This document shows positions 10,554 to 32,983 of a stretch of DNA of 64,000 nt, in pieces (positions within the stretch are counted from its first letter, which is position 1; every line of letters begins with the position of its first letter). The translations under genes and the position numbers were made by a program. This DNA comes from an uncultured Clostridium sp. (lineage in GTDB: Bacteria; Bacillota; Clostridia; TANB77; CAG-508), in the NCBI GenBank assembly GCA_947570695.1, contig CANOVB010000005.1, positions 67,487 through 131,486 on the forward strand, written 5' to 3'. Under the pieces are notes generated by a model. It searched no databases, had not been told where the DNA came from, and saw only the letters and a list, made by a program, of their open reading frames with translations.

Positions 10554-10589
10554 AAAAAACATCATAATAAAGAAAAGGGAGAGAAAGCT

Positions 10590-14572: not shown

Positions 14573-14621
14573 TTTTTTATCCTCCTACAAAATATATGTT
14601 CGGTAAAACTTTGTTTGTTTT

Positions 14622-14673: not shown

Positions 14674-14700
14674 TATTTTTAAAAAATAAAGAAACTTTAT

Positions 14701-14734
14701 AAAATAAAAAACGCGGGGGCGGAAAACCGCCCCC
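14701..14734 (-). terminator. GC-rich rho-independent terminator at the end of island 1
   Basis: gggggcgg-aaaa-ccgccccc (14715-14734) followed on the minus strand by a U-run (plus-strand aaaataaaaaa 14701-14711). Confidence 0.85.
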
Positions 14735-14821
14735 AACATGGTTTGAAGATTGCAATAGTAAGGGATTTGAAAGTGCTAATTTACCGTAATCCGAAGTGCC
14801 AGCATGTGAACATCACGAACG

Positions 14822-16099
14822 TTACGTGATATTCAATGTTTTGCCGTTGGTCAAGACCACTTGTGTTACGAGTCCCAATTTGTTGGTGTTGAAGCTCGCA
14901 GCGTCGTAACAGAACCGATAGCCGTCCTGAGGGCGGTCATAGATGGAACTGACGAACACCTGATTATCCCTGATATAGCAGAACTGCTTATCAGAGATGA
15001 AGCCGAAAGCGGTGATGTTTGACATGTACCACCCTGTATAGATTCTCGAGGCGATAATCGTCCCATTGAGATACAGGGAGCCGTCTGTAAGCATCAGAGT
15101 GTTGCTTTCAACTGTGCCCTTGGTGTACAAGGTAGCATAGGTGTCCTTTACGACAGCGTAGGTTTCCTTAGCAATCCACTTGTCGTTTGTGGAGGTGAAT
15201 TGCTTCAGGGTGTAAGTGGACTTCTCTGTAACGATTTCCGAGAGGAAACCATTGCTGTCAGTCCTGAAGGTCTTGAACTTGCTGTCCAGGGTAACCTTCT
15301 CCGCAGAGTACCAGTTTCCGAAAGTGAAACGGTACAGAGTACCATTGCTTTCGTAGAGGTACACGTTGTAGCTGGTATCGAATCCCAAGAATTTAGCACC
15401 CTTAAGGGTGTCGGACAGCCGGACGCCGTGAGTTGCATTGAGAACGCTCTTTTCGTCTTTGCTCACAATGATGGAAACCTTCAGGTTGCCAAACTCGTAA
15501 GCGTTACGAACGAACTCGCTCTCAGCGTTGGTGTACATTTCAACACGGCTGGTGTTATTTCCCGGCCTCTGAGGAACAGAAGGCTGAGAAGGCTGGCTGG
15601 GTTGAGACGGCTGGGAAGGCTGAGTCGGCGTACTGGGAACGGTGCTACCAGTAAGAGACTGGTTACCACTTGTGGTTTGCACCGAAGTTGCCAGATCGTC
15701 GCTGTTGTAAAGCAGACATGTTACGCCAGAAGCGTACCAAGTCGATTGCTTACCATCGCTTCCAACGCTAATCAGTGCACCAGCGCTGGTGACGTAGAAG
15801 AAATCGCCATTTGTGGCAAAGCCGTTGTAACGGGAACCGGAGCCAGCAGAGTTGCTCGCAAGAACGGTTCCATTGTTGTTATACACGGTGCTGCCGATGC
15901 TGTAAAAGCTTTTGCTGGGAACGTGGGCGTCCTGCCGGCGGTCATAGGTGTACAGCTTGTACCAGGTGCAGCCCGAGGAGGCGTCATCATAGGTAAAGCC
16001 GTACGGCGCTGTGTCGGCGGTCGTGGCGGCGAAAGCAGTGGGGCAGACCCCAAAGAAGCAGCACACAACCAGGAACAATGCGATCAAAGATTTTTTCAT
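14822..16099 (-). CDS. Secreted two-domain protein of unknown function with a (PSQ)n linker; GC-rich and foreign in composition
   Basis: Start is ATG 16099 (MKKSLIALFLVVCCFFGVCPTAFA|ATTAD, a signal peptide) after GAAAGG. The linker is PSTPTQPSQPSQPSQPSQPSVPQRPG. GC3-rich codons differ from all neighbouring genes. Confidence 0.8.
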   Translation of the reverse strand: MKKSLIALFLVVCCFFGVCPTAFAATTADTAPYGFTYDDASSGCTWYKLYTYDRRQDAHVPSKSFYSIGSTVYNNNGTVLASNSAGSGSRYNGFATNGDFFYVTSAGALISVGSDGKQSTWYASGVTCLLYNSDDLATSVQTTSGNQSLTGSTVPSTPTQPSQPSQPSQPSQPSVPQRPGNNTSRVEMYTNAESEFVRNAYEFGNLKVSIIVSKDEKSVLNATHGVRLSDTLKGAKFLGFDTSYNVYLYESNGTLYRFTFGNWYSAEKVTLDSKFKTFRTDSNGFLSEIVTEKSTYTLKQFTSTNDKWIAKETYAVVKDTYATLYTKGTVESNTLMLTDGSLYLNGTIIASRIYTGWYMSNITAFGFISDKQFCYIRDNQVFVSSIYDRPQDGYRFCYDAASFNTNKLGLVTQVVLTNGKTLNIT

Positions 16100-16247
16100 G
16101 TTAGTCAACCTTTCTGTGTTAAAATAAATCTTCAAAACCATGTTAGTTCAACAAATAGCCAAAAGGTCAGCTAAATAAAGTTGAACATCAAATCCCATAA
16201 AATCATTATAGCACAAACTAGTAAAAAAGGCAAATTTATGTAAAGCT

Positions 16248-16287
16248 ATAAAAAGCGTGCCCCAGCTTGCACTGGGGCACATTTTTG
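16248..16287. terminator. GC-rich bidirectional terminator between the two island-1 genes
   Basis: gtgcccca-N8-tggggcac with an A-run upstream and a T-run downstream. Confidence 0.8.
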
Positions 16288-16308
16288 TGAATAAGATTCA
16301 CCTAAAAA

Positions 16309-16749
16309 TTAGAAATTCGCGTTTGGATCATCTGATAATTTGTACAGTAAATAGTCTGGGTCAACCTGAACGATATAGTGACTTCCACTTTTGGTGGTGA
16401 AAAGAAACCAGTCGGGTGCAATTTCTTCAAATGACTCTACTAGAGTCGTATTGAGATATTTTACACTGGTATCTGTAACACTAACAATAACGGAAGCTCT
16501 TTTACCCTTTGTAGGGTAACATAAGCAGACTCCAACTGTGGATTTATGTTTTAACTGAAGTTCAGTTATGTTAACAAACCATTCCACAGGGAAAAAATGC
16601 TCTACGTCGTCAATCTTGACAATGTACCGTTCAAAACCACTCATGTATACTGTCCACGAGGCCTCATATGCTTCTCCAACTTCTAAAAGCCTAAAATTGC
16701 ATTTTGGACCGCCGTGGATATCAATAGAACCATTGTACACGAGTTTCAC
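16309..16749 (-). CDS. Hypothetical 146-aa protein (island 1, intermediate GC)
   Basis: GTG start 7 nt after GAGGTG. It has its own terminator at 16248-16287. No motif recognised. Confidence 0.6.
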   Translation of the reverse strand: MKLVYNGSIDIHGGPKCNFRLLEVGEAYEASWTVYMSGFERYIVKIDDVEHFFPVEWFVNITELQLKHKSTVGVCLCYPTKGKRASVIVSVTDTSVKYLNTTLVESFEEIAPDWFLFTTKSGSHYIVQVDPDYLLYKLSDDPNANF

Positions 16750-16998
16750 AACACATCACCTCTAAATAATAATTTTTGAAATGCTGAGCTTTAGATTTGT
16801 AAATATGAAACTTATCCATAGTATGATAACATGTTTGCATAAAAAGGTCAAACTAGTTTTATTGAGTTTTAATCGTGTGTTTGTATTTTTATGTCACAAT
16901 CTGCATTTAATTGTACAATATTTACAATTAATTTATAAACATAAACTCAATGGTAAGTGTTTTGTATTTTATTAGAAGTTTTAATAACTTGTAAAATA

Positions 16999-17367
16999 TT
17001 ATTGTTTCTTAATCTTAGGTTTAGATACCAAAGAAGCAATATAACCAAAGAAAATTGCTGCTGCGATTCCTCCTGCTGCTGCTTTAATTCCACCAGTAAA
17101 TGCACCAATAAAACCAGAAGAACTAATTTCTGATATTGTTCCTTTAGCAAGTAGATTACCGAATCCTGTTAATGGAACTGTTGCACCACAACCAGCAAAA
17201 TCAATTAAATATTTATACCAGCCAAGACCACCTAAAATAACTCCTAATGTTACATAAGTTACAAGTATACGTGCAGGAGTTAGTTTAGTTTTATCTATCA
17301 AAATCTGTCCAATAATACAAATAACTCCTCCAACAATAAATGCTTTTAAAATCATGTACCAATCCAT
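16999..17367 (-). CDS. spoVAE: Stage V sporulation protein AE (SpoVAE/SpoVAEB-type)
   Basis: MDWYMILKAFIVGGVICIIGQILID...GATVPLTGFGNLLAKG is typical of SpoVAC/AE-family membrane proteins. Start at ATG 17367 is preferred over the track start at 17448. Confidence 0.85.
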   Translation of the reverse strand: MDWYMILKAFIVGGVICIIGQILIDKTKLTPARILVTYVTLGVILGGLGWYKYLIDFAGCGATVPLTGFGNLLAKGTISEISSSGFIGAFTGGIKAAAGGIAAAIFFGYIASLVSKPKIKKQ

Positions 17368-17437
17368 ATTGTTAAATCCTTTTATAATAAATTTAGGTTT
17401 TTTAGGATACCTAGAAACCTTTAATATAAATAATATA

Positions 17438-18451
17438 TTAAATTTCAATACTTATAGCATGAGCTATACCAGGTATTGATTCACCTTGCTGGGTACTGGT
17501 TGAATTCATTAAAGCTCCAGTTGCTATCATTAAAACTTTTTTATATTTTTTTTCTTGTAGCATTTTATAAACATATCCTGAAAATACACTTGCAATACAA
17601 CCACAGCCAGAACCACCAGAATGAGTATCTTGATTTTCTTTATCAAAAATAAGAACACCACAATCATTATAATTTGATTTTATGTTGTACCCTTTGGAAG
17701 AGGCTAAATCTATTAGAATATCTTTTCCAATATGACCTAAATCACCAGTAAATATTGCATCATAATAACTTGGATTTCTTCCTGTATCTTTAAAATGAGA
17801 GATAAGAGTATCTTCAGCAGCACCAGCCATAGCAGCTCCCATATTGTTTGCATCTTTTATACCCATATCAACAATTTTTCCAGGTGTAAAACTTGTTATA
17901 AATGGACCATTTCCATTTTTAGTAAGAACTGCACATCCAGCACCTGTGACAGTCCACTGACTTGAAGGGGGCCTTTGATTTCCTAGTTCTAGTGGAAATC
18001 TGAATTGCTTTTCAGCACTACAAAAATGACTTGATGCAGAACATATTACATTATTTGCAAAATCACCATCTATAAAACTTGAAGCAACTATTAAACTTTC
18101 AACAAAAGTTGAACATGCGCCAAATAAACCTATAAAAGGTATATTAGTTTCTCTTAATCCAAAAGAAGATGCAATACACTGATTTAATAAATCACCAGCA
18201 AAACAAAAATCTATATCACTTGAAGCAATTCCTGATTTAGATATAGCCATATTAACAGTTTCTTTAACTATTTTACTTTCAGCACTTTCCCAACTTTTTT
18301 CACCCCAAAATTCATCATCCAAACATTGATCAAAGAATTGATGAAGTGGACCTTCTTTTTCCTTAGGACCAACTATAGAAGCTGTAGTAGCAATATTTAT
18401 TGGGTTAGATAAAATATAACTTTGATTACCAACTTTTTTTATAAAAATCAC
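17438..18451 (-). CDS. spoVAD: Stage V sporulation protein AD (thiolase-fold, DPA-binding)
   Basis: IVGPKEKEGPL...FAGDLLNQ...GACST...GGSGCGC blocks are typical of SpoVAD. The exact start is uncertain because the GTG at 18451 abuts the AAGGAGA RBS. Confidence 0.88.
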   Translation of the reverse strand: MIFIKKVGNQSYILSNPINIATTASIVGPKEKEGPLHQFFDQCLDDEFWGEKSWESAESKIVKETVNMAISKSGIASSDIDFCFAGDLLNQCIASSFGLRETNIPFIGLFGACSTFVESLIVASSFIDGDFANNVICSASSHFCSAEKQFRFPLELGNQRPPSSQWTVTGAGCAVLTKNGNGPFITSFTPGKIVDMGIKDANNMGAAMAGAAEDTLISHFKDTGRNPSYYDAIFTGDLGHIGKDILIDLASSKGYNIKSNYNDCGVLIFDKENQDTHSGGSGCGCIASVFSGYVYKMLQEKKYKKVLMIATGALMNSTSTQQGESIPGIAHAISIEI

Positions 18452-18476
18452 TCTCCTTAAAAAATAATGACCGATG

Positions 18477-18581
18477 GGGGACGTTTGTTAATGGACATTT
18501 TTGTCCGTTAGGGATAGATATTATTTATTTTTTAAACATCTGTAATAAAGAGGACAAAAATGTCCATTAACAAACGTCCCC
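18477..18581. repeat. Palindromic element PE-30: perfect 30-bp inverted repeats with a 45-bp spacer, inside the spoVAC-spoVAD intergenic region
   Basis: ggggacgtttgttaatggacatttttgtcc (18477-18506) and its exact reverse complement (18552-18581). The same arms recur at 47584-47647. Confidence 0.9.
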
Positions 18582-18590
18582 AAAAGGATA

Positions 18591-19055
18591 TCAAACTAGT
18601 GTTAAACTTTGAGTATTAAATATAATGTAAATTAAACCAACAATAATACTTGAAGAAATACCATACACAAGAACTGGTCCTGCAATAGTAAACATTTTTG
18701 CGCCAACACCCATTACATATCCTTCTGATTTATATTCCATAGCAGGTGAAACAATAGAATTTGCAAATCCAGTTATAGGTACTAAAGAACCAGCACCAGC
18801 AAATTTACCAATTTTGTTAAATATATTTAATCCTGTTAAAAAAGCACTAGCAAATACTAAAAGCATAGATACAATAGTATAAGAATTTGTTTCATCTATT
18901 CCACGGATTTTACACATTTCAAAAATGATTTGACCAATAGCACAAATTAATCCGCCAACCCAAAATGCATTAAAACAATTTTTTAATATTGGAGAATTAG
19001 GCGTTTTTTCATCTACATAGGTTTGATATTCTTCTTTACTTTGAATAGGTTTCAA
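18591..19055 (-). CDS. spoVAC: Stage V sporulation protein AC
   Basis: TPNSPILKNCFNAFWVGGLICAIGQ...GAGSLVPITGFANSIVSPAMEYKSEG is typical SpoVAC. TTG start 7 nt after AAAGGAGA. Confidence 0.9.
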   Translation of the reverse strand: MKPIQSKEEYQTYVDEKTPNSPILKNCFNAFWVGGLICAIGQIIFEMCKIRGIDETNSYTIVSMLLVFASAFLTGLNIFNKIGKFAGAGSLVPITGFANSIVSPAMEYKSEGYVMGVGAKMFTIAGPVLVYGISSSIIVGLIYIIFNTQSLTLV

Positions 19056-19255
19056 AAAATCATCTCCTTTTTATAAATTTTAAACTTATATTTTCCAAAA
19101 AATACATTTGTTATTCATATAAATTTCATAAAATTTTAATAAAATCGTAAAATAGAAAAATATTTTAATATTGAAATAAATCAGAAACTTATATTTTTAC
19201 TAGATTGAAATATTTTCTATCCAAGCTTTCTAAAAAGAAAAAAGGAGATTTAAAT

Positions 19256-21205
19256 ATGGATAAATATTTAAAATTATTAAGTAAAACTTATAAAAATATT
19301 CAAGAAGTTAGTGAAGAAATTATAAATCTTCAAGCAATTTTAAACCTTCCAAAAGGAACAGAATTGTTTTTAAGTGATATTCATGGAGAATATGAAGCAT
19401 TTATACATATTCTTAATAATGGTTCAGGTATAATAAAAAGTAAAATCGAAGATATATATGAAAAAACATTGGATGAAGAAAGTAGAAAAGATTTAGCAAC
19501 TTTAATTTATTATCCAGAAGAAAAACTTAATATGATAAAAAAAGAAAAAAGTAATTTAAATGAATGGTATAAAATTACTTTATATAGATTAATTGAGGTA
19601 ACTAAGGCTGTGAGCTCAAAATATACTCGTTCAAAGGTAAGAAAGGCAATGCCTAAGGGGTTTGATTATATAATAGATGAACTTTTACATCTTCAAGGAG
19701 AAGATGCAAACAAAGAAAAATATTATAAACAGATTGTTGAAAGTATTATTGATTTAAATAGAGCAGATAATTTTATTGTAGCAATTTCTGAATTAATTAA
19801 AAGAATGGCAATAGATCATTTGCATATAGTTGGAGATATTTATGATAGGGGACCAGGAGCCCCGATTATAATGGATAAATTAATGGATTTCCACAGTTTG
19901 GATATAGAATGGGGAAATCATGACATACTTTGGATGGGAGCTGCTACTGGAAATGAAGCATGTATTAGTAATGTTGTAAGAATTTGTAGTAGATATGATA
20001 ATTTAGCAACATTAGAAGAAGGGTATGGAATTAATATTAGACCATTATCAATTTTTGCAACTGAAATGTACAAAGATGATGAATGCAAAGCATTTCTTCC
20101 AAGAAATAAGGAAATGTCTAAATATAGTAATACTGATAAAATTGTTTTATCAAAAATTCAAAAAGCAATATCAGTAATTCAATTTAAAGTAGAAGGACAG
20201 CTTATAAAGAAACATCCAGAATATAAAATGAAAGATAGATTACTACTTGACAAGATTGATTTTGAAAAAGGAGTAGTAAAAATAGATGGTAAAGAATATA
20301 AATTAAATGATATTAATTTTCCTACTATAGATATAAAAAATCCATATAAACTAACAAAAGAAGAAAAAGAAATTATGGAAAGATTAAAAAATTCTTTTAT
20401 GCATAGTGAAAAATTAAATGCTCATGTTAATTTTCTATATTCTAAAGGGCATGTTTATAAAAAATTTAATTCTAATATATTATTTCATGGTTGCATACCA
20501 ATGAAGGAAAATGGAGAATTTGATAAAGTAGAAATTTTAGGCAAATCACTAAAAGGCAAAGAACTATTAGATCATATAGAAAATGTTGCACATAAAGCTT
20601 ATTTTGGAGAGCCAAATGAGGCAAATCAAGAAGCAATAGATTTAATGTGGTATTTTTGGTGCGGTCCAAAATCACCATTATTTGGTAAAGACAAAGCCGC
20701 TACTTTTGAGAGATATTTCCTTGATGAAAAAGAGCTACATAAAGAGCATAAAAATCCTTATTATAGTTTAATAAATAGCGAAGAAATTTGTGATAAAATA
20801 TTAGAAAACTTTGAAACAAGTATTGAAGAGGGACATATAATAAATGGGCATGTACCAGTAAAAGCGAAAGATGGAGAAAGTCCTGTAAAAGCTGGTGGAA
20901 AAATGATAGTTATTGATGGTGGTTTTGCAAAAGCATATCAACCAACCACTGGAATTGCTGGTTATACATTGACTTATAATTCACACGGATTGGTTTTAGC
21001 AATGAATGAACCTTTTGAATCAAAAGCAAAAGCTATAAAAGAAGGATTAGATATTAGAACTCAAACAGTTTTAAAAGAAGATGTTGTAAGTAGAAAAAGT
21101 GTTGCTGATACAGATATAGGAAAAAAATTGCAAGAAGAGATTTCAGATTTAAAACAATTATTAATTGCATATAGAGAAGGTGTTTTAAAAGAAAATTTAC
21201 AATAA
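19256..21205 (+). CDS. fbp: Fructose-1,6-bisphosphatase class 3
   Basis: MDKYLKLLSKTY...LSDIHGEYEAF...VGDIYDRGP...WGNHD are metallophosphatase motifs in the class-3 FBPase context. ATG 19256 follows AAAGGAGA. Confidence 0.92.
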   Translation: MDKYLKLLSKTYKNIQEVSEEIINLQAILNLPKGTELFLSDIHGEYEAFIHILNNGSGIIKSKIEDIYEKTLDEESRKDLATLIYYPEEKLNMIKKEKSNLNEWYKITLYRLIEVTKAVSSKYTRSKVRKAMPKGFDYIIDELLHLQGEDANKEKYYKQIVESIIDLNRADNFIVAISELIKRMAIDHLHIVGDIYDRGPGAPIIMDKLMDFHSLDIEWGNHDILWMGAATGNEACISNVVRICSRYDNLATLEEGYGINIRPLSIFATEMYKDDECKAFLPRNKEMSKYSNTDKIVLSKIQKAISVIQFKVEGQLIKKHPEYKMKDRLLLDKIDFEKGVVKIDGKEYKLNDINFPTIDIKNPYKLTKEEKEIMERLKNSFMHSEKLNAHVNFLYSKGHVYKKFNSNILFHGCIPMKENGEFDKVEILGKSLKGKELLDHIENVAHKAYFGEPNEANQEAIDLMWYFWCGPKSPLFGKDKAATFERYFLDEKELHKEHKNPYYSLINSEEICDKILENFETSIEEGHIINGHVPVKAKDGESPVKAGGKMIVIDGGFAKAYQPTTGIAGYTLTYNSHGLVLAMNEPFESKAKAIKEGLDIRTQTVLKEDVVSRKSVADTDIGKKLQEEISDLKQLLIAYREGVLKENLQ

Positions 21206-21231
21206 ATGTTATATAAAAGATTCAACAAATA

Positions 21232-21335
21232 TTATATGCAAATTAAATGATGTCAATATTAAAATGTTGATATACTGATGCAGGAAAAGTTAAAACTTAA
21301 CAGTATTAGTAACTTGATATACAAACAAATTTTGA
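21232..21335 (+). repeat. Intergenic repeat family IGR-2 (free-standing copy)
   Basis: About 78 nt (21241-21312) align at roughly 80% identity by eye with 6870-6945, e.g. caatattaaaa(t/a)(g/a)ttgatatactgat...taaaacttaa(c/at)agtattagtaa. Confidence 0.7.
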
Positions 21336-21475
21336 AGGAGAATAAAATAAATTATAAATAAATTATGGAAACACAAGTAAATTAATTAAATAAAGCTCAT
21401 ATAAACATAAAATTAATTAGTTAAATAAATTATGGAAAAAAGTAAAATAAAATTGAATGTATAGAAAAATTATTA

Positions 21476-21522
21476 GAAAAGAGAAAAACCCATAAAATAA
21501 GCGAGTTTTTCTCTTTTTTTCT
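21476..21522. terminator. Rho-independent terminator about 270 nt downstream of fbp
   Basis: aaaagagaaaaac-N15-gtttttctctttt followed by a T-run. Confidence 0.7.
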
Positions 21523-21648
21523 AAGTCAAACTATTGACATTTTTTGTAAAAAAAGATATAAATATACATATAAAAGTGAAATAAAATGTGATATTATATG
21601 TTTATGTAAAAAAATGTGTTTTTTTACTGTAAACAAAGGAGAAATGTA

Positions 21649-23262
21649 ATGTTAAGCTGTTTGGGAATTTATGTAGATAAAAACTTAATAAAATACGCAA
21701 AATTAAAAAAGAACAAAGATACATTAAAAGTTGAAGCTTTTAATGTTGAAGCTTTTGAGAATTTAGATGTTGCATTAAAAAAAGTTATAAATGAAACAAA
21801 CAGTTCAAGAATTCCAATAAGTATAAATATATCAGATGAGCTTTACAATTATTTTGAAGTATTCTCAGTTTTAGAAAAAAAGGATATTACAAAATCTTTA
21901 GATATAGAATTTGAAATGTTATGTGATTCAAGAGGATATGATAAAAGTTTGCTTGAATCAAGATATATTTTAATGGAAAACAAAAATAATTATGATAAAT
22001 ATAAATCATTATATATATCTGCAAATAAAAATGAAATAGATAGAAAATTGAGTATTCTTTCAGAGTATAAATTAGCTTCAATGACACCAGTTTCAACAAG
22101 TATAACAAATCTTATTGAACCAAAACAGGGCGAAAATATTGCAATTATTAATATAGAAAATGAAACAAAAATTACAACTATAATAGATGGTCAAATTAGT
22201 AGAGTTGATGTTTTAAATTCAGGAATGGATGAGATATCACAAAAAATAAATAAAATAGAATTATCATGGAAAAAAGCTTATGATGTGTATAAAAATATTA
22301 CAATTTATGCTCATGAAGTTTTAAGCTTAGAAGAAGATGAGAATGAATATATAGATATTGTAATGCCAGTTTTATATAAAATAGCAAATGAATCAAAAAA
22401 AATAATTAATACTTCTAAAGATAGAATAGACAAAGTTTATATAACAGGTACAGGTGCAACAATTAATAATGTTGATTTATATTTCCAAGAGTTTTTTAAA
22501 AAAGCAAAATGTGAAATATTAAAACCATTTTTTATTGATTCTAGTTCTTTAAAAGTACCAGCAAAAGAATATATAGAAGTAAATTCTGCTATTGCACTTG
22601 CCTTAGATGGATTAGGGTATGTAAATAAAGATTTAAATTTTGCACCAGTATCCAAATTTGATAATATAGATATTGAAACAATAATGAATTCTAAAGATAA
22701 TATAGATTTTAAAAATTGGAAAAATTCATTTAAATCACCTTTTGATATACAAGAAAAAATGATAGCAAGAGGAATTGCAGTATTTTTAATAGCAACTATT
22801 GGTTTTTCTGTAATGGGAACTAGTATTATGAATCAAATAAGTTTGCAAAAAGATGAAGCAAAAGAACAGCTAACTCAAACTATTGCTCAAATATCAACAA
22901 TGGAGAGTGAACTTTCAAGAATAGAAAGTCAGACCAATCAATATGCTACTTTGATTAATAGCGTAGATTCTTTAAATGAAGCAAATGCTAGTGTTCAAAA
23001 TAGTAGAATAATATCTAAAGGTGCTATACCAAATTTATTAACAAGAATAATGTTTATAATACCGCAACAAGTACAAGTTATTTCAATAGAAAATAAAGAA
23101 GGTAAACATATTATTATAGAGGCTGTATCAGAAAAATATGAACAATTAGGTTACTTTTCAGCTGCAATAAAAAATGATGGTATGCTTCAAAATATTCAAT
23201 CAACAAGTGCTACAAAAAGTGATTCACTTGTTCAAATTACAATAGAAGGAGATTTACCATGA
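21649..23262 (+). CDS. Type IV pilus assembly protein, PilM-PilN fusion
   Basis: N-terminal actin-like ATPase-fold region (LGIYVDKNLIKYAKL..., ITGTGATINN), then a TM segment (IAVFLIATIGFSVMG) and a coiled coil, as in clostridial PilMN. ATG 21649 follows AAAGGAGA. Confidence 0.7.
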   Translation: MLSCLGIYVDKNLIKYAKLKKNKDTLKVEAFNVEAFENLDVALKKVINETNSSRIPISINISDELYNYFEVFSVLEKKDITKSLDIEFEMLCDSRGYDKSLLESRYILMENKNNYDKYKSLYISANKNEIDRKLSILSEYKLASMTPVSTSITNLIEPKQGENIAIINIENETKITTIIDGQISRVDVLNSGMDEISQKINKIELSWKKAYDVYKNITIYAHEVLSLEEDENEYIDIVMPVLYKIANESKKIINTSKDRIDKVYITGTGATINNVDLYFQEFFKKAKCEILKPFFIDSSSLKVPAKEYIEVNSAIALALDGLGYVNKDLNFAPVSKFDNIDIETIMNSKDNIDFKNWKNSFKSPFDIQEKMIARGIAVFLIATIGFSVMGTSIMNQISLQKDEAKEQLTQTIAQISTMESELSRIESQTNQYATLINSVDSLNEANASVQNSRIISKGAIPNLLTRIMFIIPQQVQVISIENKEGKHIIIEAVSEKYEQLGYFSAAIKNDGMLQNIQSTSATKSDSLVQITIEGDLP

Positions 23263-23927: not shown

Positions 23928-23960
23928 AATTAGATTTGATTTAGAAGGAATGGTAAGAAA

Positions 23961-24563: not shown

Positions 24564-24581
24564 AATTTAAGGAGAATAGTT

Positions 24582-24752: not shown

Positions 24753-24830
24753 ATTTTATATTTAAAACTTATAGGCATGTACATTTGAATATTAATGTAT
24801 ATGCCTATTTATGTAATTAGGTTAAAAAGT

Positions 24831-25856: not shown

Positions 25857-25889
25857 TAAAATAATAAAAAATTAAAGAAAGGAGGAAAT

Positions 25890-27161
25890 ATGGCTAATAG
25901 TTTTATATGTAAAGTTCTTACTCCACAAGGACAAGTAGTAAAAATTAAAATGACTGAAAATGATAAAATTGAATGTTTAAAGAAACTAAAAAGAAATGGA
26001 ATGACACCAATTAGTATAAAGCATTCATTAAGCAAATTTAAAAGTTTAGAAAAAGGAACCGCAAAGATATATTCAAAAAGAAAAAATGTGAAAAAAAATA
26101 ACATAATAATTCAATTATCTAATAGAGTATCTACACAAGAAATAAAAGTATTTACACAAGATTTTTATATGTTAAAGAAATCTAATTTTACTAGTGAACA
26201 TGCATTAAAAACAATTATAAGTAATACCAAAAACCTAGAACTAAAAAGAGTTCTAAATATAATGCTAAAAAGTATACAAAAAGGAATACCTCTGTATAAA
26301 ACTATGGAAGAATATAAAAACATATTTCCTTTAGAATATACGTATTTAATAAAAATGGGAGAGTTAACAGGAAAATTAGAAGTTTCTTTAGAATATGTTA
26401 TTAAATATTTAGATAATGAAGAAAAATTAAAATCAAGAATTAACAAGATTTTAATTCCTAATATTATAATGTTCTTATGCATAATAATACTTACGTTTTC
26501 AGCTATTTTAATAGGAATACCATTACTTAAGAATATATTTATGATAAATGGCAGTATTAATATACCAAAAGGTATTTTAGTGATATCAAATATTTTATCT
26601 AAAGTTTTTAAATACTGGTATATTATAGTATTGCTTATAGCAAGCATAATAGTAATTTTTATTAAATTTATAAATTCAGATGAAGGAAAATATAGGTTTG
26701 ATAAATTTATTTGTACTAATATATTATTTGGGAAGATTATATATTTTTTAAATTTTTCTAGGATATTAAGTTCTTTAGAAATTAACTTAAAAAATAAAAT
26801 GAGGCTTCAAGATGCTTTAGATATTAGTAAGAATGTTATAAAAAATACATATATTTTAAATACACTTGAGAAATCGGCCAATAATATTTATATTGGTAAA
26901 TCTTGGATAGAACCTTTGGAGGAAAATTTAAGTCCAATAATAATTGAATTATTAAAAAAAGGATCAAAAAATAATTTAATTGAAGTTATTGAGAAAGTAA
27001 TTGAATATATAAATATTGAGATTGAAAATGAAATGAATAGATTATTAAAAATTTTGCCAGAAATTTCTTATGGAATAGTGGGAATTTCAATATTGATATT
27101 TGTTATTACAGTTTTATTACCTTGTATACAAATATATTTAAGTGGATTTTTATTTAGTTAA
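25890..27161 (+). CDS. pilC: Type II secretion system F family / PilC platform protein
   Basis: Two GspF-type repeats and 3 TM segments. N-terminus FICKVLTPQGQVVKIKMTENDKIECLKKLKRNGMTPISI is typical of PilC. Confidence 0.8.
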   Translation: MANSFICKVLTPQGQVVKIKMTENDKIECLKKLKRNGMTPISIKHSLSKFKSLEKGTAKIYSKRKNVKKNNIIIQLSNRVSTQEIKVFTQDFYMLKKSNFTSEHALKTIISNTKNLELKRVLNIMLKSIQKGIPLYKTMEEYKNIFPLEYTYLIKMGELTGKLEVSLEYVIKYLDNEEKLKSRINKILIPNIIMFLCIIILTFSAILIGIPLLKNIFMINGSINIPKGILVISNILSKVFKYWYIIVLLIASIIVIFIKFINSDEGKYRFDKFICTNILFGKIIYFLNFSRILSSLEINLKNKMRLQDALDISKNVIKNTYILNTLEKSANNIYIGKSWIEPLEENLSPIIIELLKKGSKNNLIEVIEKVIEYINIEIENEMNRLLKILPEISYGIVGISILIFVITVLLPCIQIYLSGFLFS

Positions 27162-27189
27162 AAAATATTTAAAAGGAGTACAAAAGAAA

Positions 27190-28095
27190 ATGGATATAGG
27201 AATTGATTTAGGTGGAAGTCATATAGGAGTAGGAATAATAGAAGATGGAAATTTGATTTCTACAGTAGATAAGTTTTTTTCTAAAGAAGATAGAGAAAAT
27301 ATAGAAGTTGCAATATTAAAAAATATAGAAGAATTAATTAATAGGATATCATTTGAAAATAATTTATCTTTAGATAAGATAAATAAAATAGGAGTGGCAT
27401 CACCAGGAACGATTACAAATGGACACATAATTTCTTGGAATTTGAACTTAAAAAATTTTGATTTACAATCTAAGCTAATAGAAAAATATAATAAACCTGT
27501 TAAAATAAGAAATGATGGAAAATGTGCAGCATTAGCAGAAAAAAAGTATGGATCAATGAAAAATTATAATGATTGTGTATTTATAAATATTGGAACCGGA
27601 ATAGGTGGAGCGGCATTTATTGGTGGAAAACTTTTAGAACCTAAAAGATATTCTGGTTTTGAATTTGGACATATAACACTTGTAAAAGATGGAATACAAT
27701 GTACTTGTGGAAAAAAAGGATGTTTTGAGAGATATGCATCAATAAAAGCTTTAAAAGACAAAATAACTAATACATTAAATATAGATGGAACAGACATTTC
27801 AGGACAATATTTAAGAGAAGAGATAATGGTAAAATATCATAAACAATTAGAAAAGGATATTAACGAATTTATTGATTATTTAAGAATTGGTGTATGTAAT
27901 TTAATAGATATATTTGAACCAGAAGTAGTTTGTTTTGGAGGTAGTTTTTCGTATTATGAAGGACATCCAGTACTAAATAATTTAATTGAAGAAATAGATA
28001 AAAAAGGCTCAAGGTTTAATGAAGGAAAAACTGAAATTGTAACAGCAAATTTAAAAAATGATGCAGGGATAATCGGTTCAGTAATTGATTTTTAG
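27190..28095 (+). CDS. glk: ROK-family glucokinase
   Basis: MDIGIDLGGSHIGVG..., NDGKCAALAE, and the zinc motif GHITLVKDGIQCTCGKKGCFE. ATG 27190 follows AAAAGGAG. Confidence 0.88.
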   Translation: MDIGIDLGGSHIGVGIIEDGNLISTVDKFFSKEDRENIEVAILKNIEELINRISFENNLSLDKINKIGVASPGTITNGHIISWNLNLKNFDLQSKLIEKYNKPVKIRNDGKCAALAEKKYGSMKNYNDCVFINIGTGIGGAAFIGGKLLEPKRYSGFEFGHITLVKDGIQCTCGKKGCFERYASIKALKDKITNTLNIDGTDISGQYLREEIMVKYHKQLEKDINEFIDYLRIGVCNLIDIFEPEVVCFGGSFSYYEGHPVLNNLIEEIDKKGSRFNEGKTEIVTANLKNDAGIIGSVIDF

Positions 28096-28115
28096 TGCTT
28101 AAGTTAGCTTAAAGG

Positions 28116-28144
28116 TTGACATAATTTGAACAGAATGGTATAAT
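28116..28144 (+). promoter_or_regulatory. Near-perfect consensus sigma-A promoter of the GC-rich cassette
   Basis: TTGACA (28116-28121), 17-nt spacer containing TG at 28136-28137, TATAAT (28139-28144). Confidence 0.75.
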
Positions 28145-28180
28145 AAATATTGACCCAAAAACTTTTAGGAGGAAATTGTG

Positions 28181-28528
28181 ATGAACGGTAGCAACAATCG
28201 CACTATGGAGTTGACGGCAATGAACGAGCAAGGCGTTTTCACCCTGATTTTCCGGGATGACGAGCTGCTGAGAGAGTTCGAGAACATGGTTTCCATGTTC
28301 AACCGGAAGCAGGAAGAGCTGATCGTCACCGAGATCGGCGAAAGCAACGGCAGAATCTTTGAGGTCAAGCGCGTCGAGGGACGCCCCACTTGTTGGGAGC
28401 TGGCTCTGCACAAGTATATGAGCCTGTCCAACACCACAAAGACCAACAAGATTACCGGAAAGAAGTACGAGCCTGTACTGTTTACGCCGCTGCGCTTCGT
28501 GAGTCAGACAGAAGAAGCGGCCTGCTAA
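28181..28528 (+). CDS. Hypothetical 115-aa protein (GC-rich cassette, island 2)
   Basis: AGGAGG (28167-28172), 8 nt, then ATG 28181. About 52% GC in sampled lines. GC3-rich codons. No motif recognised. Confidence 0.7.
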   Translation: MNGSNNRTMELTAMNEQGVFTLIFRDDELLREFENMVSMFNRKQEELIVTEIGESNGRIFEVKRVEGRPTCWELALHKYMSLSNTTKTNKITGKKYEPVLFTPLRFVSQTEEAAC

Positions 28529-28587
28529 TCACAAACCATTGCTGGAGCCAAACAAAAAAGGAGTTTTTAAGGAGATGGCACCAGCAG

Positions 28588-28614
28588 CCCCGCCACTATG
28601 GCGGGGTTTTATTT
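28588..28614 (+). terminator. Rho-independent terminator of the GC-rich cassette
   Basis: ccccgcca-cta-tggcgggg followed by ttttattt. Confidence 0.85.
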
Positions 28615-28615
28615 A

Positions 28616-28870
28616 TATAATAGGAAATTCCTATAGAATTCCTATTATATAAAGCCTTCGGCAACATTTCACAGAAAAATTGCTATGCAATTTTTTGCGG
28701 GCGAACAAAGACGAGCCACTTAAATACACTAAAATGTTTGAGAATTTTAAAAGTGGCTCTTTTGTTCTTTAATAGAAAAGTGCTCTGTACTTTTATTAGA
28801 TAAAGCTTTCATCGACTTTATACAGAAAAACGATAAAGCAATTTTTTATAATATAAAGAAGTTGCCAAAA
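28616..28870 (+). repeat. Intergenic repeat family IGR-1, copy R5a (28616-28770) plus truncated R5b (28771-28870)
   Basis: taataggaaattc..gaattcctatta hairpin, ataaagccttcggcaacattt, gaaaaattgc-tat-gcaatttttt hairpin, and long stem gaacaaagacgagccactt...aagtggctcttttgttc. The second unit begins aatagaaaagtgctctgtacttttatt gataaagctttc. Confidence 0.75.
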
Positions 28871-28924
28871 TTTACAGGAATCCCCAAAATAATACATGAA
28901 ATATAAAAAAATAGAAAAAATATG

Positions 28925-28980
28925 TTGACAATTATTTTTTTTATAACTATAATGAATATATGAACAAATATTCATATATT
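28925..28980 (+). promoter_or_regulatory. Sigma-A promoter overlapping an ArsR/SmtB-type 12-2-12 operator
   Basis: TTGACA (28925-28930), 17-nt spacer, TATAAT (28948-28953). AATATATGAACAAATATTCATATATT (28955-28980) matches the SmtB/CzrA operator pattern aATAxxTGAACAxxTATTCAxxTATt. Confidence 0.75.
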
Positions 28981-29035
28981 CACATATGATAAATTAATAA
29001 AAATCAATAGTTCAAAAAGAGGGGGAAATTTTGCA

Positions 29036-29395
29036 ATGAATGAAGAATTAATTAATGAAGATATTCAGATAGTCGATGAAAGAAAAGTAAAAAAGGTAAA
29101 AGAAACACTACCATCTGATGAATTAATTTTTGATTTAGCTGAATTATTTAAAGTTTTTGGAGATTCAACAAGAATGAAAATAATATGTGCTTTATTAGAA
29201 GAAGAACTTTGTGTAGGGGATATAGCAAGTATAACAAATTCAACACCATCTGCAATTTCACATCAATTAAGAGTGTTAAAACAGTCAAAGCTTGTTAAAT
29301 ATAGAAAAGAAGGAAAAATAGTTTATTATTCACTTGATGATGATCATGTAAAACAAATCTTTGAGAAAGGTCGTGAACACATTGAAGAAGTATAA
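29036..29395 (+). CDS. ArsR/SmtB-family metalloregulator
   Basis: FKVFGDSTRMKIICALLEEELCVGDIASITNSTPSAISHQLRVLKQSKLVKYRKEGKIVYYSL is the ArsR winged-helix signature. Confidence 0.9.
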   Translation: MNEELINEDIQIVDERKVKKVKETLPSDELIFDLAELFKVFGDSTRMKIICALLEEELCVGDIASITNSTPSAISHQLRVLKQSKLVKYRKEGKIVYYSLDDDHVKQIFEKGREHIEEV

Positions 29396-31457
29396 TTTTT
29401 TACTTAAAAATTTAGATTGTGCTAATTGTGCAAATAAAATTCAAAATAAATTAGCAGAAAATAAAGACTACAAAAATGTTAATGTTAATTTTAGTACATT
29501 AAAATTAACATTAGAAAGCGAACTAGAGAATATAAAACAAGATATTGTAAAAATTGTTTCTGAATTAGAACCAGGAGTAGAAGTAATAGATATGCATAAT
29601 CATATTCATGCTAATAAAGAAGATAAAAAAAAGCCAAAAATAAACAAGAATTTTGTAAGATTAATGGTTGGAATAATTTTCATGATATTTGGGCTATTTA
29701 TTAACCTTCCAAGAAATTATAATTTAATATGTACAGTTTTTGCTTATGCAATCTTATTATATAGAACAACAAAAAATGCATTGAAACTATTAAAAAATAA
29801 GGTAATAGATGAAAATTTTTTAGTAACGATTTCTTGTATTGGAGCTTTTTTTATAGGAGAACAAAAAGAAGGACTAATGGTTATAGTTTTATATGAAATA
29901 GGAAAATTATTAGAGGATAAAGCTGTTAATAATACGAGAAAATCAATTACGAATTTAATGGATATAAAGCCAGAGTATGCAAATTTGAAACATGAACATC
30001 ATGAGCATAGGGTAAACCCAGAGGAAGTAAATGTAGGAGACATTATAATTGTAAAACAAGGGGAAAAAGTAGCGTTAGATGGGATAGTAATTTCAGGAGA
30101 AGCTTCATTAAATACAGCATCATTAACAGGAGAAAGTAAACTTTTAAAAGTAAAAGAAAATGATAATATAATTTCAGGTAGTATAAACGAAAAAGGATTA
30201 ATTGAAGTAAAAGTAACAGAAAAATATGAAAATAGTACAGTAAAGAGAATACTAGAATTAGTTGAAAATGCTACTGATAAAAAAGCAAAAACTGAAACTT
30301 TTGTAAATAAAGCTTCAAGAATTTATACTCCAATAGTAGTAGCTTTAGCATTAGCTGTTGCAATATTTTTACCATTAATATTAAATATACAATATTCAGA
30401 AAGTATATACAGAGCTTTAATATTTTTAGTAGTTTCTTGCCCTTGTGCTATTGTTATATCAGTTCCTTTAAGTTATTTTACAGGAATAGGAAAAGCCTCA
30501 AAATCTGGAATATTAATAAAAGGAAGTAATTACTTAGATAGTTTAAAAAATATTGGGGAAATTGTATTTGACAAAACAGGAACTCTTACAAAAGGAGAAT
30601 TTGGAGTAGAAGAAATAAAACCATATTCAAGCAAATATACTGAAAATGAAATATTAGAATATGCAGCATTAGGAGAAAGTCTATCTAATCATCCTATTGC
30701 TATAGCAATATTAAAAGAATATGGAAAAGTTATAGAAAAAGATAAAATAATAAATTTTGAAGAGGTTTCTGGGAAGGGAATAAAATATAAAATTGAAAAT
30801 AAAGAAGTTAAAATAGGAAATTCTGACTTTACGGGAGCTAAAAATGAAGATAAAATTGGAACAGTTATTTATGTAAAAATAGATGATGAAATTGCTGGAG
30901 ATATAGTATTAAATGATATTTTAAAACCAGAGACAAAAGAAGCAATAGGTAAATTAAAATCTTTAGGAATTAAAACAAAAATGTTTACAGGAGACAATAA
31001 AGATATAGCAAAAAAGATTGGGAATGAAATCGAAATAGATGAAATAAGATCAGAAATGCTACCACAAGATAAATATAATGAAGTAGAAAAAATAATAAAT
31101 AAAAAAAGAGAAACAAAAGAAAAAGTAGCATTTGTAGGAGATGGAATTAATGATTCTCCAGTTTTAGCACTATCTGATATAGGAATTTCAATGGGAGGAA
31201 TTGGTGCAAGTTCAGCTATTGAAGCATCAGATGTTGTTATTATGACAGATGATTTAATAAAAATCGAAGAAGCAATCAATATATCTAAAAAAACAAATAA
31301 AATAATAATGCAAAACTTATTGTTTGCTTTATTAATAAAGGTTTTAGTACTAATTTTGAGTATGTTTGGAATAGCACAAATGTGGCAAGCAGTTTTTGCA
31401 GATGTTGGAGTAACACTAATTACAATATTAAATACAATGAGAATATTAAAAAATTAA
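29361..31457 (+). CDS. P1B-type heavy-metal (Cd/Zn/Co-type) translocating ATPase
   Basis: N-terminal HMA-like CANC, CPC motif (VVSCPCAIVISVP), DKTGTLT, GDGINDSP. The start is uncertain: TTG 29361, GTG 29373 or TTG 29382, all overlapping the arsR end. Confidence 0.9.
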   Translation: MRKVVNTLKKYNFLLKNLDCANCANKIQNKLAENKDYKNVNVNFSTLKLTLESELENIKQDIVKIVSELEPGVEVIDMHNHIHANKEDKKKPKINKNFVRLMVGIIFMIFGLFINLPRNYNLICTVFAYAILLYRTTKNALKLLKNKVIDENFLVTISCIGAFFIGEQKEGLMVIVLYEIGKLLEDKAVNNTRKSITNLMDIKPEYANLKHEHHEHRVNPEEVNVGDIIIVKQGEKVALDGIVISGEASLNTASLTGESKLLKVKENDNIISGSINEKGLIEVKVTEKYENSTVKRILELVENATDKKAKTETFVNKASRIYTPIVVALALAVAIFLPLILNIQYSESIYRALIFLVVSCPCAIVISVPLSYFTGIGKASKSGILIKGSNYLDSLKNIGEIVFDKTGTLTKGEFGVEEIKPYSSKYTENEILEYAALGESLSNHPIAIAILKEYGKVIEKDKIINFEEVSGKGIKYKIENKEVKIGNSDFTGAKNEDKIGTVIYVKIDDEIAGDIVLNDILKPETKEAIGKLKSLGIKTKMFTGDNKDIAKKIGNEIEIDEIRSEMLPQDKYNEVEKIINKKRETKEKVAFVGDGINDSPVLALSDIGISMGGIGASSAIEASDVVIMTDDLIKIEEAINISKKTNKIIMQNLLFALLIKVLVLILSMFGIAQMWQAVFADVGVTLITILNTMRILKN

Positions 31458-31461
31458 ATAT

Positions 31462-31516
31462 AAAAAATCAAGGGGACCCGTTTTGTGATTAGCTCACAAA
31501 CGGGTCCCTCTTTTTG
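31462..31516. terminator. Bidirectional GC-rich terminator at the left edge of island 3
   Basis: gggacccgttttgtga-ttagc-tcacaaacgggtccc with an A-run upstream and a T-run downstream. Confidence 0.85.
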
Positions 31517-31527
31517 GAAAAGTTTGC

Positions 31528-32037
31528 TTACAGCAGACTGAGAAACTCAGGGGGACAAAACAGAGGTCTGTAGTCCGTGAAGTCCTTAATCAGCTGTTTC
31601 AGGTTTTCTTGACTGATATTATCAGCCACATAGGCAACCAAAGGCTTGAGTAGATGCTTGCCGGGGGCGTTCTGAACAAGAGCGATTCCGTAAACATCTT
31701 TTTTTACAGTCAGAATCACATCTTTGGAGGTCTTTTCCTTGTAATCACGGATTGCTTTCCAAAACTCATCAAAAGAGGTAACATTGGAAGCTTTGGTGCT
31801 GAAGGAAAGAGACCAAGCGATTTTCTGACCGCGGCTTTTCGGCATTTCAGCCCTGATGACAGAGGGAGCTTTGTTCATTCCGTTGTGCGAAATGTAGAAA
31901 CATTCCCCAATGCTTGCTTGGCAGTTAGTGGATGGGTATCCACATAAAGATGTCCGCAACTCATGACCATCAAATGAAGCTCTAACAGATTCAGAGATTG
32001 TGATGGACATAGGAGATTTCCACAAAAAAACCTGCAT
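31528..32037 (-). CDS. Hypothetical 169-aa protein (island 3, GC-rich)
   Basis: ATG 32037 lies 5 nt after GGAAAGG. About 52% GC in sampled lines. No motif recognised. Confidence 0.65.
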   Translation of the reverse strand: MQVFLWKSPMSITISESVRASFDGHELRTSLCGYPSTNCQASIGECFYISHNGMNKAPSVIRAEMPKSRGQKIAWSLSFSTKASNVTSFDEFWKAIRDYKEKTSKDVILTVKKDVYGIALVQNAPGKHLLKPLVAYVADNISQENLKQLIKDFTDYRPLFCPPEFLSLL

Positions 32038-32336
32038 TCTTACCTTTCCCTACGGTAGCAAAAGGCTACTTTCGTTCCCAAAATTTGGTATAGTAGTATG
32101 TTTTGGGCTAACATTTTGTTGAATTTTTGCCTGAATTGACTTTAAAACATAGGCAGATATATAGTTTCAACATTCCTATTATAACATAGATTAACATAAA
32201 TTTCAATTTTAATATTTAATAGTTTTATACTTTACTATAAAATTGCATATTATATATGTTATAATAAATATAATGTCCCAGAGAGGAACGTATTGCATGC
32301 CTGTAATTAGGCATATGACAACAGGAGGAGATCGCA

Positions 32337-32747
32337 ATGAAAAGACGGAGAAAAAAGCCTAGTCCTATGAGTAAAATTTTGGTATTCGTGGCAGGGGTAC
32401 TTTTGGGAGTATCAGCTACACTGAGCTATTTTACATTTTCTGAGTACCAAAATAGTCCCCCTAAACCCGCCAACCCAAGAATGAACATAGTTGCACACGG
32501 CTCATGGATTCATTCTAATGATGGTGGCAGTTATACTATTTCAGCTTTAGGTTATGGAAAACTGTACTCTAATGTCGCGTTCAGTAATGAGGTTTCAGCA
32601 ACTGAGCACCCTGTCGAGGTTCGTAGTGAGGGATATACGATACAAATCGACATTGTAGGATGGTATAAAAAAACAGTAACTATGACTGCTGGAGAGTCAC
32701 TGCTAATAGGTGTACCTGAGGCTTATCTTTATGTAATTGTTGTCTAA
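32337..32747 (+). CDS. Hypothetical 136-aa membrane-anchored protein (island 3)
   Basis: AGGAGGAG RBS. MKRRRKKPSPMSKILVFVAGVLLGVSATLSYFTF (basic N-terminus plus one TM), followed by a beta-rich domain. Confidence 0.65.
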   Translation: MKRRRKKPSPMSKILVFVAGVLLGVSATLSYFTFSEYQNSPPKPANPRMNIVAHGSWIHSNDGGSYTISALGYGKLYSNVAFSNEVSATEHPVEVRSEGYTIQIDIVGWYKKTVTMTAGESLLIGVPEAYLYVIVV

Positions 32748-32753
32748 GGCAAA

Positions 32754-32793
32754 AGAGCCGGAGTGAATGAGAATTCAAATTCACTCCGGCTCT
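32754..32793 (+). terminator. 15-bp GC-rich hairpin at the right edge of island 3 (no canonical U-tract)
   Basis: agagccggagtgaat-N10-attcactccggctct. Confidence 0.5.
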
Positions 32794-32983
32794 AGACGCT
32801 TTATTATCAAGAGCGACTGATATATTATTATAAAAAATTGTAATTAGTTAGATACCAGAATTTCTAAAAAGATTGATTTTTAACCAAAAGAAGAGTATAA
32901 TGTATAAGTATTTTATATAAGTATAAATAAAATTACATAAACTTGATTTATATAATTTTTTAGCTAAAGATGGAGGAAGTATT

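Follow-up and report, generated by a model that had tools for sequence, protein, structure and literature searches.

GC-rich, moron-like gene cassettes as probable long-term residents of hypervariable intergenic slots in an AT-rich lineage of uncultured Clostridia

The window analyzed here is a stretch of 64,000 nucleotides from the genome of an uncultured Clostridium sp. (assembly GCA_947570695.1, contig CANOVB010000005.1), in which three GC-rich islands carrying five genes, designated A to E, lie between host genes in DNA with an overall GC content of 27%. These islands are probably hypervariable intergenic slots that are older than the species and are occupied by moron-like units, with A, C, and D long resident, B and E added later, and a GC-richness that is lasting. 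An earlier note on this DNA had regarded the islands as unameliorated insertions, which does not apply to A, C, and D, as these belong to old syntenic families (25–70% amino acid identity, saturated synonymous sites), but B and E are indeed lineage-specific and free of mobility genes. Moron-like cassettes in hypervariable slots are of an already known kind; the point of interest is the long-term GC-richness of several unrelated cassette families that are confined to very AT-rich genomes.

The GC content at third codon positions (GC3) of the five island open reading frames (ORFs) is 0.31–0.75, which is far above the range of 0.07–0.20 found in 48 host ORFs, where the sole exception is a doubtful 107-aa ORF (0.28); the non-coding parts of the islands have an intermediate GC content. 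As the earlier note had stated, all five ORFs are placed exactly between intact host genes, namely YgjP-like/SpoVA operon, ROK/ArsR-CadA, and CadA/TrpS. Its description of them as small orphan ORFs is only partly correct, since A encodes 425 aa and A, B, C, and D all have relatives, leaving E as the only strict orphan. The features concerned are as follows:

14703..16994, no strand assigned: island 1, the variable segment of the YgjP/SpoVAE slot, carrying cassettes A and B
14822..16099, minus strand: gene A, 425 aa, GC 0.51, GC3 0.65
16309..16749, minus strand: gene B, 146 aa, GC3 0.36
28181..28528, plus strand: gene C, 115 aa, GC 0.53, GC3 0.74
31528..32037, minus strand: gene D, GC3 0.48, 160 or 169 aa according to which start codon is used
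32337..32747, plus strand: gene E, 136 aa, GC3 0.31, with an N-terminal transmembrane segment
32207..32866, plus strand: cassette E, a 660-bp insertion comprising gene E with its promoter and terminator, defined by empty-site alignment against locus L048

A pilus gene located between the islands was used as an anchor and gave 27 syntenic loci from different species, and further loci were obtained through protein look-ups and a JGI scan (loci labeled L0xx). All belong to a clade of uncultured, very AT-rich gut Clostridia, in which several metagenome-assembled genomes are labeled Candidatus Scatovivens. Slot 1 (YgjP-like/SpoVAE) contains an A-family gene in ~20 loci (34–67% identity), which adjoins FBPase where SpoVA is absent; the flanks of these genes have a GC content of 0.27–0.34 in all loci, and the genes themselves have a GC3 of 0.23–0.65. 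The same slot is empty in 11 species (144–257 bp) and holds a tandem pair of A-family genes, 250 bp apart, in L054. Slot 2 (directly downstream of ROK) contains a small gene of the fast-evolving C family, 83–160 aa in length, in 11 species (GC3 0.32–0.62), recognizable by the core …E·NG·Y·V…W··L··KY… that they have in common; some species have additional genes there, or an unrelated AT-rich gene in its place. In slot 3, upstream of TrpS, only two relatives of D were found, with 70% and 59% identity and GC3 values of 0.51 and 0.37, both with AT-rich flanks. There are about 122 clusters in the A family and a few relatives each of B, C, and D. The occurrence of A, C, and D homologues (25–70% identical) in the same slots, together with the saturation of their synonymous sites, excludes a recent arrival of these genes.

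The closest relative of the window among the loci is the sister species L042, whose flanks show 81–90% DNA identity that stops at position 14702 (the foot of the A terminator) and resumes at 16995 (the SpoVAE stop codon), with no DNA similarity between these two points. Slot 1 of L042 lacks B and contains an AT-richer A-type gene (44% identical, GC3 0.23); its junctions are at other positions than those of the window, and no common core or duplication is present. Gene B is absent from slot 1 of every other species, and its family consists of three distant relatives (33–45% identity, GC3 0.38–0.44) located in unrelated contexts of other AT-rich genomes. Similarly, gene E has no homologue outside the species. 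In L048, D directly adjoins a TrpS that is 92% identical to that of the window with no E between them, and alignment of the spacers places cassette E (660 bp, 32207–32866) in place of ~61 bp. The empty-site comparison proposed in the earlier note thus identifies an insertion for E and an absence from L042 for B, but it finds A, C, and D in the same slots of relatives. B and E are lineage-specific additions whose junctions are sharp and free of repeats. The lineage of the window has also been rearranged, in that the genes following the C slot in relatives are all missing from the window and ArsR-CadA, which is of host-like composition and absent from this place in all related loci, now splits the C and D slots.

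A fourth slot (LeuRS/YgjP), empty in the window, contains moderately GC-enriched cassettes in relatives (GC3 0.24–0.36), located on the minus strand in L020 (4518–5066), L021 (4489–4989), L040 (4564–5064), L025 (4568–5059), and L015 (3801–4226); one family among them looks GNAT-like on visual inspection of the sequence. Their presence suggests that the cassette-slot phenomenon is general in the clade.

The island families are genuine genes under purifying selection, as indicated by a ratio of nonsynonymous to synonymous substitution rates (dN/dS) of 0.08–0.15 in close species pairs, with dN and dS both raised in the cassette genes and dS 1.7–3.8 times that of their neighbors. Antisense ORFs over A and C were considered as second genes and judged a side-effect of high GC3, since conservation follows the sense frame. 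The five proteins, which the earlier note did not recognize, have no match in Pfam, PHROG, NCBIfam, or PADLOC, and a search of PDB sequences gave nothing matching them. The A protein has a predicted signal peptide for secretion and two all-beta domains joined by a disordered Pro/Ser/Gln linker in a structure model with a predicted local distance difference test (pLDDT) score of 80, in which the fold matches are generic and beta-propeller-like with low TM-scores. The sequences of B, C, and D provide no functional clue, and a structure model of D built from three sequences was unusable (pLDDT 46).

The A promoter and a leader of ~75 nt are conserved at the DNA level, though the A coding sequence is saturated, and the A transcription unit has therefore been inherited whole, as a module. 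The predicted leader structure is as follows:

16124..16198, minus strand: A-family 5′ leader RNA, a two-tier stem-loop of 7 + 7 = 14 bp (RNAalifold, with covariation controls)

The layout consists of the −10 box, AUGGGAUUUG, the two-tier stem-loop, a UGGGAUUU-like repeat, and the ribosome-binding site (RBS), with several GGA motifs. Compensatory double changes are found in 11 of the 14 pairs, and 94.8% of the alignment cells are paired compared with 81% in shuffled controls, where 0 of 500 shuffles reach the observed value and slid registers collapse. A covariance model of the leader matches only upstream of A-family genes, once in the window and elsewhere at L012 5898–5972, L022 5813–5888 (minus strand), L054 3874–3950 and 5350–5427, and other sites; these matches include copies outside the training set of the model and both tandem copies of L054. 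The leader precedes every A-family gene examined in the shared slot of the clade and has no Rfam match, so that on covariation it is predicted to be a previously undescribed structured RNA. A role in binding CsrA-type or other proteins is a matter of speculation.

The GC excess of the cassettes is a general shift at third positions (CTG, AAG, ATC, GGC, CGG/CGC) and not a preference for Firmicute “optimal” codons. Host usage of CTG, CGC, and CGG is 0.00 in ~10,000 codons. CGG is used by all five island genes and CTG or CGC by most of them, and a genome without tRNAs for these codons would translate the cassettes only at a reduced rate. The persistence of this excess was assessed with a neutral-decay test, a two-state model with rates taken from few host G/C sites. 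Between L022 and L023, where host proteins are 94–99% identical and host dS is ~0.26, the 4-fold degenerate G/C sites of the host number ~25 conserved versus ~116 mismatched (exp(−kT) = 0.27), whereas those of gene A number 65 conserved versus 24 mismatched (p ~1e-11 against the most favorable neutral expectation), and neutral decay would need an ancestral GC3 of 0.92–0.95 for this gene. Similarly, C is significant in L020/L021 (p 1e-5), where GC3 is still 0.62 and 0.56 at a dS of 1.5, and in L020/L040 (p 1e-4), and the GNAT-like GC-rich gene of the fourth slot gives p 0.03–0.05. Polarizing the substitutions with L052 as an outgroup was dropped, as an AT-shifted outgroup biases parsimony. Neutrally decaying cassettes would have reached host composition long ago, and the GC-richness is probably not a residue of recent transfer.

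The GC3 of neighboring cassettes is unequal (0.65 in A versus 0.36 in B, 0.48 in D versus 0.31 in E, and 0.44 versus 0.28 in the L054 tandem pair), which makes the determinant cassette-specific and not regional. All 20 A loci, all C and D loci, and all four B loci sit in AT-rich genomes, and GC enrichment is seen in each known member of families A to D; no relatives were found in mid- or high-GC genomes, and no member of the A family has the amino acid make-up of a high-GC organism. It is tentatively proposed, as a possibility held with less than even confidence, that a gene-specific force holds these unrelated, fast-evolving families at a GC3 of 0.4–0.75 over the long term against a host equilibrium of ~0.06–0.1 and without an outside GC-rich reservoir. 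Candidate forces could be strong GC-biased conversion tied to cassette exchange or direct selection on nucleotide content. Selection on mRNA structure was rejected as the cause, as the terminator hairpins confound the z-scores obtained (−2.8 to −5.0).

Several observations weigh against long residence with lasting GC-richness. A-family protein identity does rise with host identity (Spearman 0.64, p 2e-8), a sign of long residence, but the correlation has discontinuities, which indicate occasional replacement of alleles. For example, the host identity of 0.92 between the window and L042 contrasts with an A identity of 0.44, and that of 0.95 between L054 and L056 with 0.56, while the A protein nearest to that of the window (0.67) is found in the distant L012, in partial incongruence with the host tree; some A alleles may therefore have come in recently by replacement instead of descending vertically. 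In addition, C in L022/L023 is not significant in the neutral-decay test, and the decay expected in that test could be too high if rates are heterogeneous or mutation depends on context. In their codon usage, A and C look like genes of a mid-GC Firmicute, which would be expected of imported DNA, and the GC3 continuum of 0.23–0.75, together with the differences between adjacent cassettes, could reflect different times of arrival. Finally, recombination in the flanks is not directly observed, because the strains are nearly identical.

Among the other explanations, the one that fares best treats the slots as recombination hot spots in which GC-biased conversion or nucleotide selection keeps GC3 high in situ, although it too is on the unlikely side. 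Recombining genes have a higher GC3 in most of the bacterial groups analyzed, according to a published study (PMC4450053), and the same explanation would fit the general third-position excess that is not tied to “optimal” codons, the unusual stability of synonymous G/C sites, and the allele discontinuities and presence/absence variation, which point to frequent exchange. The strongly unlike GC3 values of adjacent cassettes and of tandem paralogues only 250 bp apart speak against it, and the required shift in GC3 from ~0.06–0.1 to 0.5–0.75 seems far above the differences that separate recombinant genes from non-recombinant ones.

A less probable alternative is slow, self-stabilizing amelioration, in which the clade ancestor imported mid-GC DNA that is still decaying and a G/C base within a GC-rich stretch mutates more slowly than an isolated one in AT-rich DNA, so that rates derived from the host would put the decay too high. 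This would account for the GC3 continuum of 0.23–0.75 within families, for the intermediate GC content of the non-coding island parts, and for a raised dS roughly as AT-biased mutation acting on GC-rich sequence yields. It is opposed by C in L020/L021, where dS is saturated (1.5) and both copies still have a GC3 of 0.56–0.62, by the need for an ancestral GC3 above 0.9, or even above 1, and by the lack of a known donor lineage.

More improbable still are recent horizontal insertions from a mid-GC donor through an unrecognized cassette route that have not yet ameliorated. The Firmicute-like codon usage of A and C in a host that never uses CTG, CGC, or CGG, the sharp junctions of the lineage-specific B and E, and the very different, AT-richer gene in the A slot of L042 are all in its favor. 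For A, C, and D it is refuted by the diverged homologues in the same slots of many species, and it is further opposed by the family-wide conservation of the A promoter and leader and by the closest non-conspecific relatives, which are only 65–70% identical and likewise come from AT-rich genomes. Searches of 5.8 billion proteins and of phages, plasmids, and viral contigs gave no donor copy. Genes A to E have no match in phage records and A has none in plasmid records or IMG/VR contigs, by which a reservoir in mobile elements was ruled out; an unsampled reservoir as the source of the GC-rich cassettes is kept as one of four candidate explanations, next to nucleotide-content selection, GC-biased conversion tied to frequent exchange, and context-dependent mutation by which G/C bases in GC-rich stretches are protected. 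The search for the same cassettes elsewhere that the earlier note had suggested thus yielded autonomous cassettes, but with syntenic homologues of A, C, and D and no donor or mobile copy.

The notion that foreign reads were joined into an AT-rich contig during assembly or binning, for which the extreme compositional contrast and the many short contigs with island genes alone could be cited, has a negligible probability, given the homologous cassettes in the same slots of other species and the identical junctions in contigs of 20–235 kb of different origin. Exact copies of proteins B, C, D, and E are found on 85–132 contigs from NCBI, ENA, JGI, and Logan, and the long contigs among these, which come from differing samples, sources, and naming schemes, show the same neighbors. 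The same junctions in many independent assemblies, at 99.9–100% identity, exclude an assembly artifact, and with it the foreign fragments that the earlier note had considered. Eleven contigs are 98.8–100% identical to the window overall and identical over all three islands, which are fixed in the species. The 99.9–100% identity among its strains makes polymorphism uninformative for timing the insertions. Comparison with L007 and L011 shows two substitution-dense patches (35–62 variable sites per 500 bp) at 10301–11300 (LeuRS) and 18800–19300 (near spoVAC), which look like imported recombination tracts in otherwise clonal strains.

If the slots are indeed old and common to the clade, each would hold at least one autonomous moron-like unit consisting of a promoter, sometimes a structured leader, an RBS, an ORF, and an intrinsic terminator. 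A, C, and D would be long-term residents that evolve much faster than their neighbors under purifying selection, with B having arrived later next to A, and E next to D. Turnover between the conserved neighbors would involve whole cassettes, which are lost, duplicated in tandem, replaced, or inserted. Slots were seen to be empty, to hold a single cassette or a tandem pair, or to have a cassette replaced or added; the breakpoints are sharp and coincide with the ends of the flanking genes, and att sites are absent. Replacement and spread may proceed via homologous recombination in the conserved flanks, perhaps after DNA uptake, and first arrivals such as E and B may have occurred by illegitimate joining, as proposed for phage morons (PMC3594210), while some force would slow or balance the GC-to-AT decay caused by host mutation bias. 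A type IV pilus cluster, possibly for competence, is located between islands 1 and 2. Of the unrecognized insertion route envisaged in the earlier note, recombinase-free turnover would survive as the simplest mechanism, and new dedicated insertion machinery is neither needed nor indicated.

Mobility features are absent, in agreement with the earlier note: no integrase, transposase, or recombinase domain is found in any ORF of the window, no tRNA genes are present, and the direct repeats around the islands are limited to short matches at chance level. Structured RNA genes are the usual source of GC-rich islands in AT-rich genomes, and they were ruled out here, as neither the islands nor seven related loci contain a Rfam or tRNA match; the only Rfam matches in the window are a T-box and the glmS ribozyme, both outside the islands.

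Each island ORF is preceded by a putative sigma-70-like promoter, based on consensus matches, and has a GC-rich hairpin at its 3′ end followed by a T-run, which is weak only for E. The hairpins that the earlier note had interpreted as element boundaries are therefore present, but as intrinsic terminators of genes and not as element ends, and the five have no common core sequence. The regulatory features are as follows:

14714..14735, minus strand: terminator of A, a 9-bp GC stem followed by a T-run (terminator scan and sequence)
16205..16233, minus strand: promoter-like site of A, TTGCCT-17-TATAAT with an extended TG, its place upstream of the leader conserved family-wide
16256..16281, minus strand: terminator of B, an 11-bp stem that also scores on the plus strand
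16823..16851, minus strand: promoter-like site of B, TTGACC-17-TATCAT with TG
28116..28144, plus strand: promoter of C, a perfect sigma-70-type TTGACA-17-TATAAT with TG, followed by an AGGAGG RBS
28586..28608, plus strand: terminator of C (terminator scan)
31472..31510, no strand assigned: bidirectional terminator hairpin of ~15 bp, common to the convergent cadA and gene D (sequence and fold of the D transcript)
32038..32206, minus strand: promoter/leader region of D, conserved, 72–83% identical to the regions upstream of D in L046–L049
32754..32793, plus strand: terminator hairpin of E, a 15-bp perfect core with a weak T-run

The D leader contains a small stem-loop just before the RBS (32040–32080, minus strand), whose stem is compensatory between species (GUAGC…GCUAC, GUAGCC…GGCUAC, and GUAGCU…AGCUAC), and a conserved UGCCU…AGGCA inverted repeat lies near the D promoter, before the stem-loop. 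Directly after the C terminator is a ~62-nt element (28608–28669) containing a perfect 15-nt inverted repeat, TTTATATAATAGGAA…TTCCTATTATATAAA (28612–28626/28639–28653), which is 82% identical to a stretch right after the terminator of an A-type cassette in a different slot of the sister species. Its counterparts are found at L042 7336–7396, L059 5312–5372, and L056 8663–8705, and weaker partial repeats occur at 28794–28847 and 28847–28873. This palindromic element was rejected as a dispersed repeat or insertion signal, having one copy in the window and only sporadic ones elsewhere. The region upstream of arsR-cadA (28925–28982) has a TTGACA-17-TATAAT promoter with perfect consensus; an inverted repeat of 12-6-12 layout, TGAATATATGAA…TTCATATATTCA, overlaps it and looks like a putative ArsR/CadC-type operator.

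The coding content of the remaining window is typical of spore-forming Clostridia, including LeuRS, IF3, the SpoVA operon, a type IV pilus cluster, ROK, and ArsR-CadA, as well as TrpRS, Obg, SerRS, GlmS with its ribozyme, UvrC, ClpB, and YqfD. The gene for the YgjP-like metallopeptidase has, upstream of it, a pair of conserved AATGTTCGGTA repeats and the palindrome cgaaaaaatgttcg (14591–14605 and 14649–14675), in a region that resembles a LexA/Cheo (SOS) box and is 78–91% identical across all related species, which suggests putative SOS control of this gene. The T-box leader (37203–37406, plus strand) precedes an ORF (37484–38284, plus strand) in which a dCTP-deaminase-like domain is fused to DUF1653, an unusual gene to follow a T-box, with SerRS further downstream; the glmS ribozyme (43624–43799, minus strand) is located ahead of glmS, as expected. 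The sporulation gene yqfD is split into two overlapping ORFs (62155–62583 and 62546–63340, plus strand), one corresponding to the N-terminal and the other to the C-terminal part of its Pfam model, through either a frameshift (pseudogene or sequencing error) or a programmed event. A 781-aa ORF of host-like composition (2219–4564, minus strand) has TraG/TraD/TrwB-type coupling-protein domains and is the only conjugation-like signature of the window, with no relaxase or integrase nearby.

Atypical composition is routinely taken as a sign of recent transfer, and amelioration as a clock. The atypical genes described here would be old syntenic residents whose synonymous G/C bases resist the host mutation bias, and composition-based calls of horizontal gene transfer and amelioration dating would mislead in this clade. 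If a gene-specific force does act, it would create stable compositional “micro-isochores” in bacteria, and if its cause is GC-biased conversion or nucleotide selection, the cassettes would offer a compact natural system with very large effects for measuring such forces. For an uncultured gut lineage, the gains are recurrent permissive cassette slots, a family of secreted beta-rich proteins, and a new, predicted structured leader RNA that may regulate, or at least accompanies, the A family.

Among known systems, integron cassettes are similar in being small, mostly orphan ORFs placed side by side, each followed by an imperfect or perfect inverted repeat. Unlike integrons, the window has no IntI or other tyrosine recombinase, no attI, and no attC consensus, and its cassettes have their own promoter-like sites and mixed orientation; the island hairpins share no motif and carry T-runs (weak for E), and they are therefore terminators and not attC sites. 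The islands also differ from integrative genomic islands, as there is no integrase or transposase, no direct repeats, and no tRNA target, and the junctions differ between species. They differ from recently transferred DNA, as A, C, and D occupy the same slots in relatives and no near-identical donor copy exists among the sequences searched, although B and E match it by half, being absent from the site in close relatives but without a donor found. The vls system of Borrelia is a GC-rich, fast-evolving surface-protein locus in a genome of 28% GC, and gene A is similar to it as a fast-evolving gene for a secreted or surface protein that is far more GC-rich than its AT-rich genome. Unlike vls, the islands are not surrounded by silent cassette arrays or repeats for segmental gene conversion, and they contain several unrelated families, some of whose proteins have no evident signal peptide or membrane segment.

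O-antigen and capsule clusters are hypervariable loci that are exchanged via recombination in conserved flanks and have a persistently atypical GC content. The slots resemble them in having conserved flanks, variable content, deeply diverged alleles that depart from the species tree, persistently atypical composition, and no mobility genes, and differ in holding single small genes instead of biosynthetic clusters, in deviating toward high GC within an AT-rich genome, and in that exchange through the flanks is only a proposed process. Morons of temperate phages are independent promoter-ORF-terminator units of atypical GC content located between genes (PMC3594210). In contrast to these, the cassettes described here are located in a chromosomal housekeeping region (LeuRS, SpoVA operon, type IV pilus, ROK, CadA, and TrpRS), have no accompanying phage genes and no PHROG or phage-database matches, and in three of the five cases belong to old syntenic families instead of being sporadic additions. 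As in phage morons, each cassette has its own promoter and factor-independent terminator, judged by consensus matches, is placed between genes of conserved order, and departs in GC content from its surroundings, and in the case of E amounts to 660 bp of “more DNA” relative to L048.

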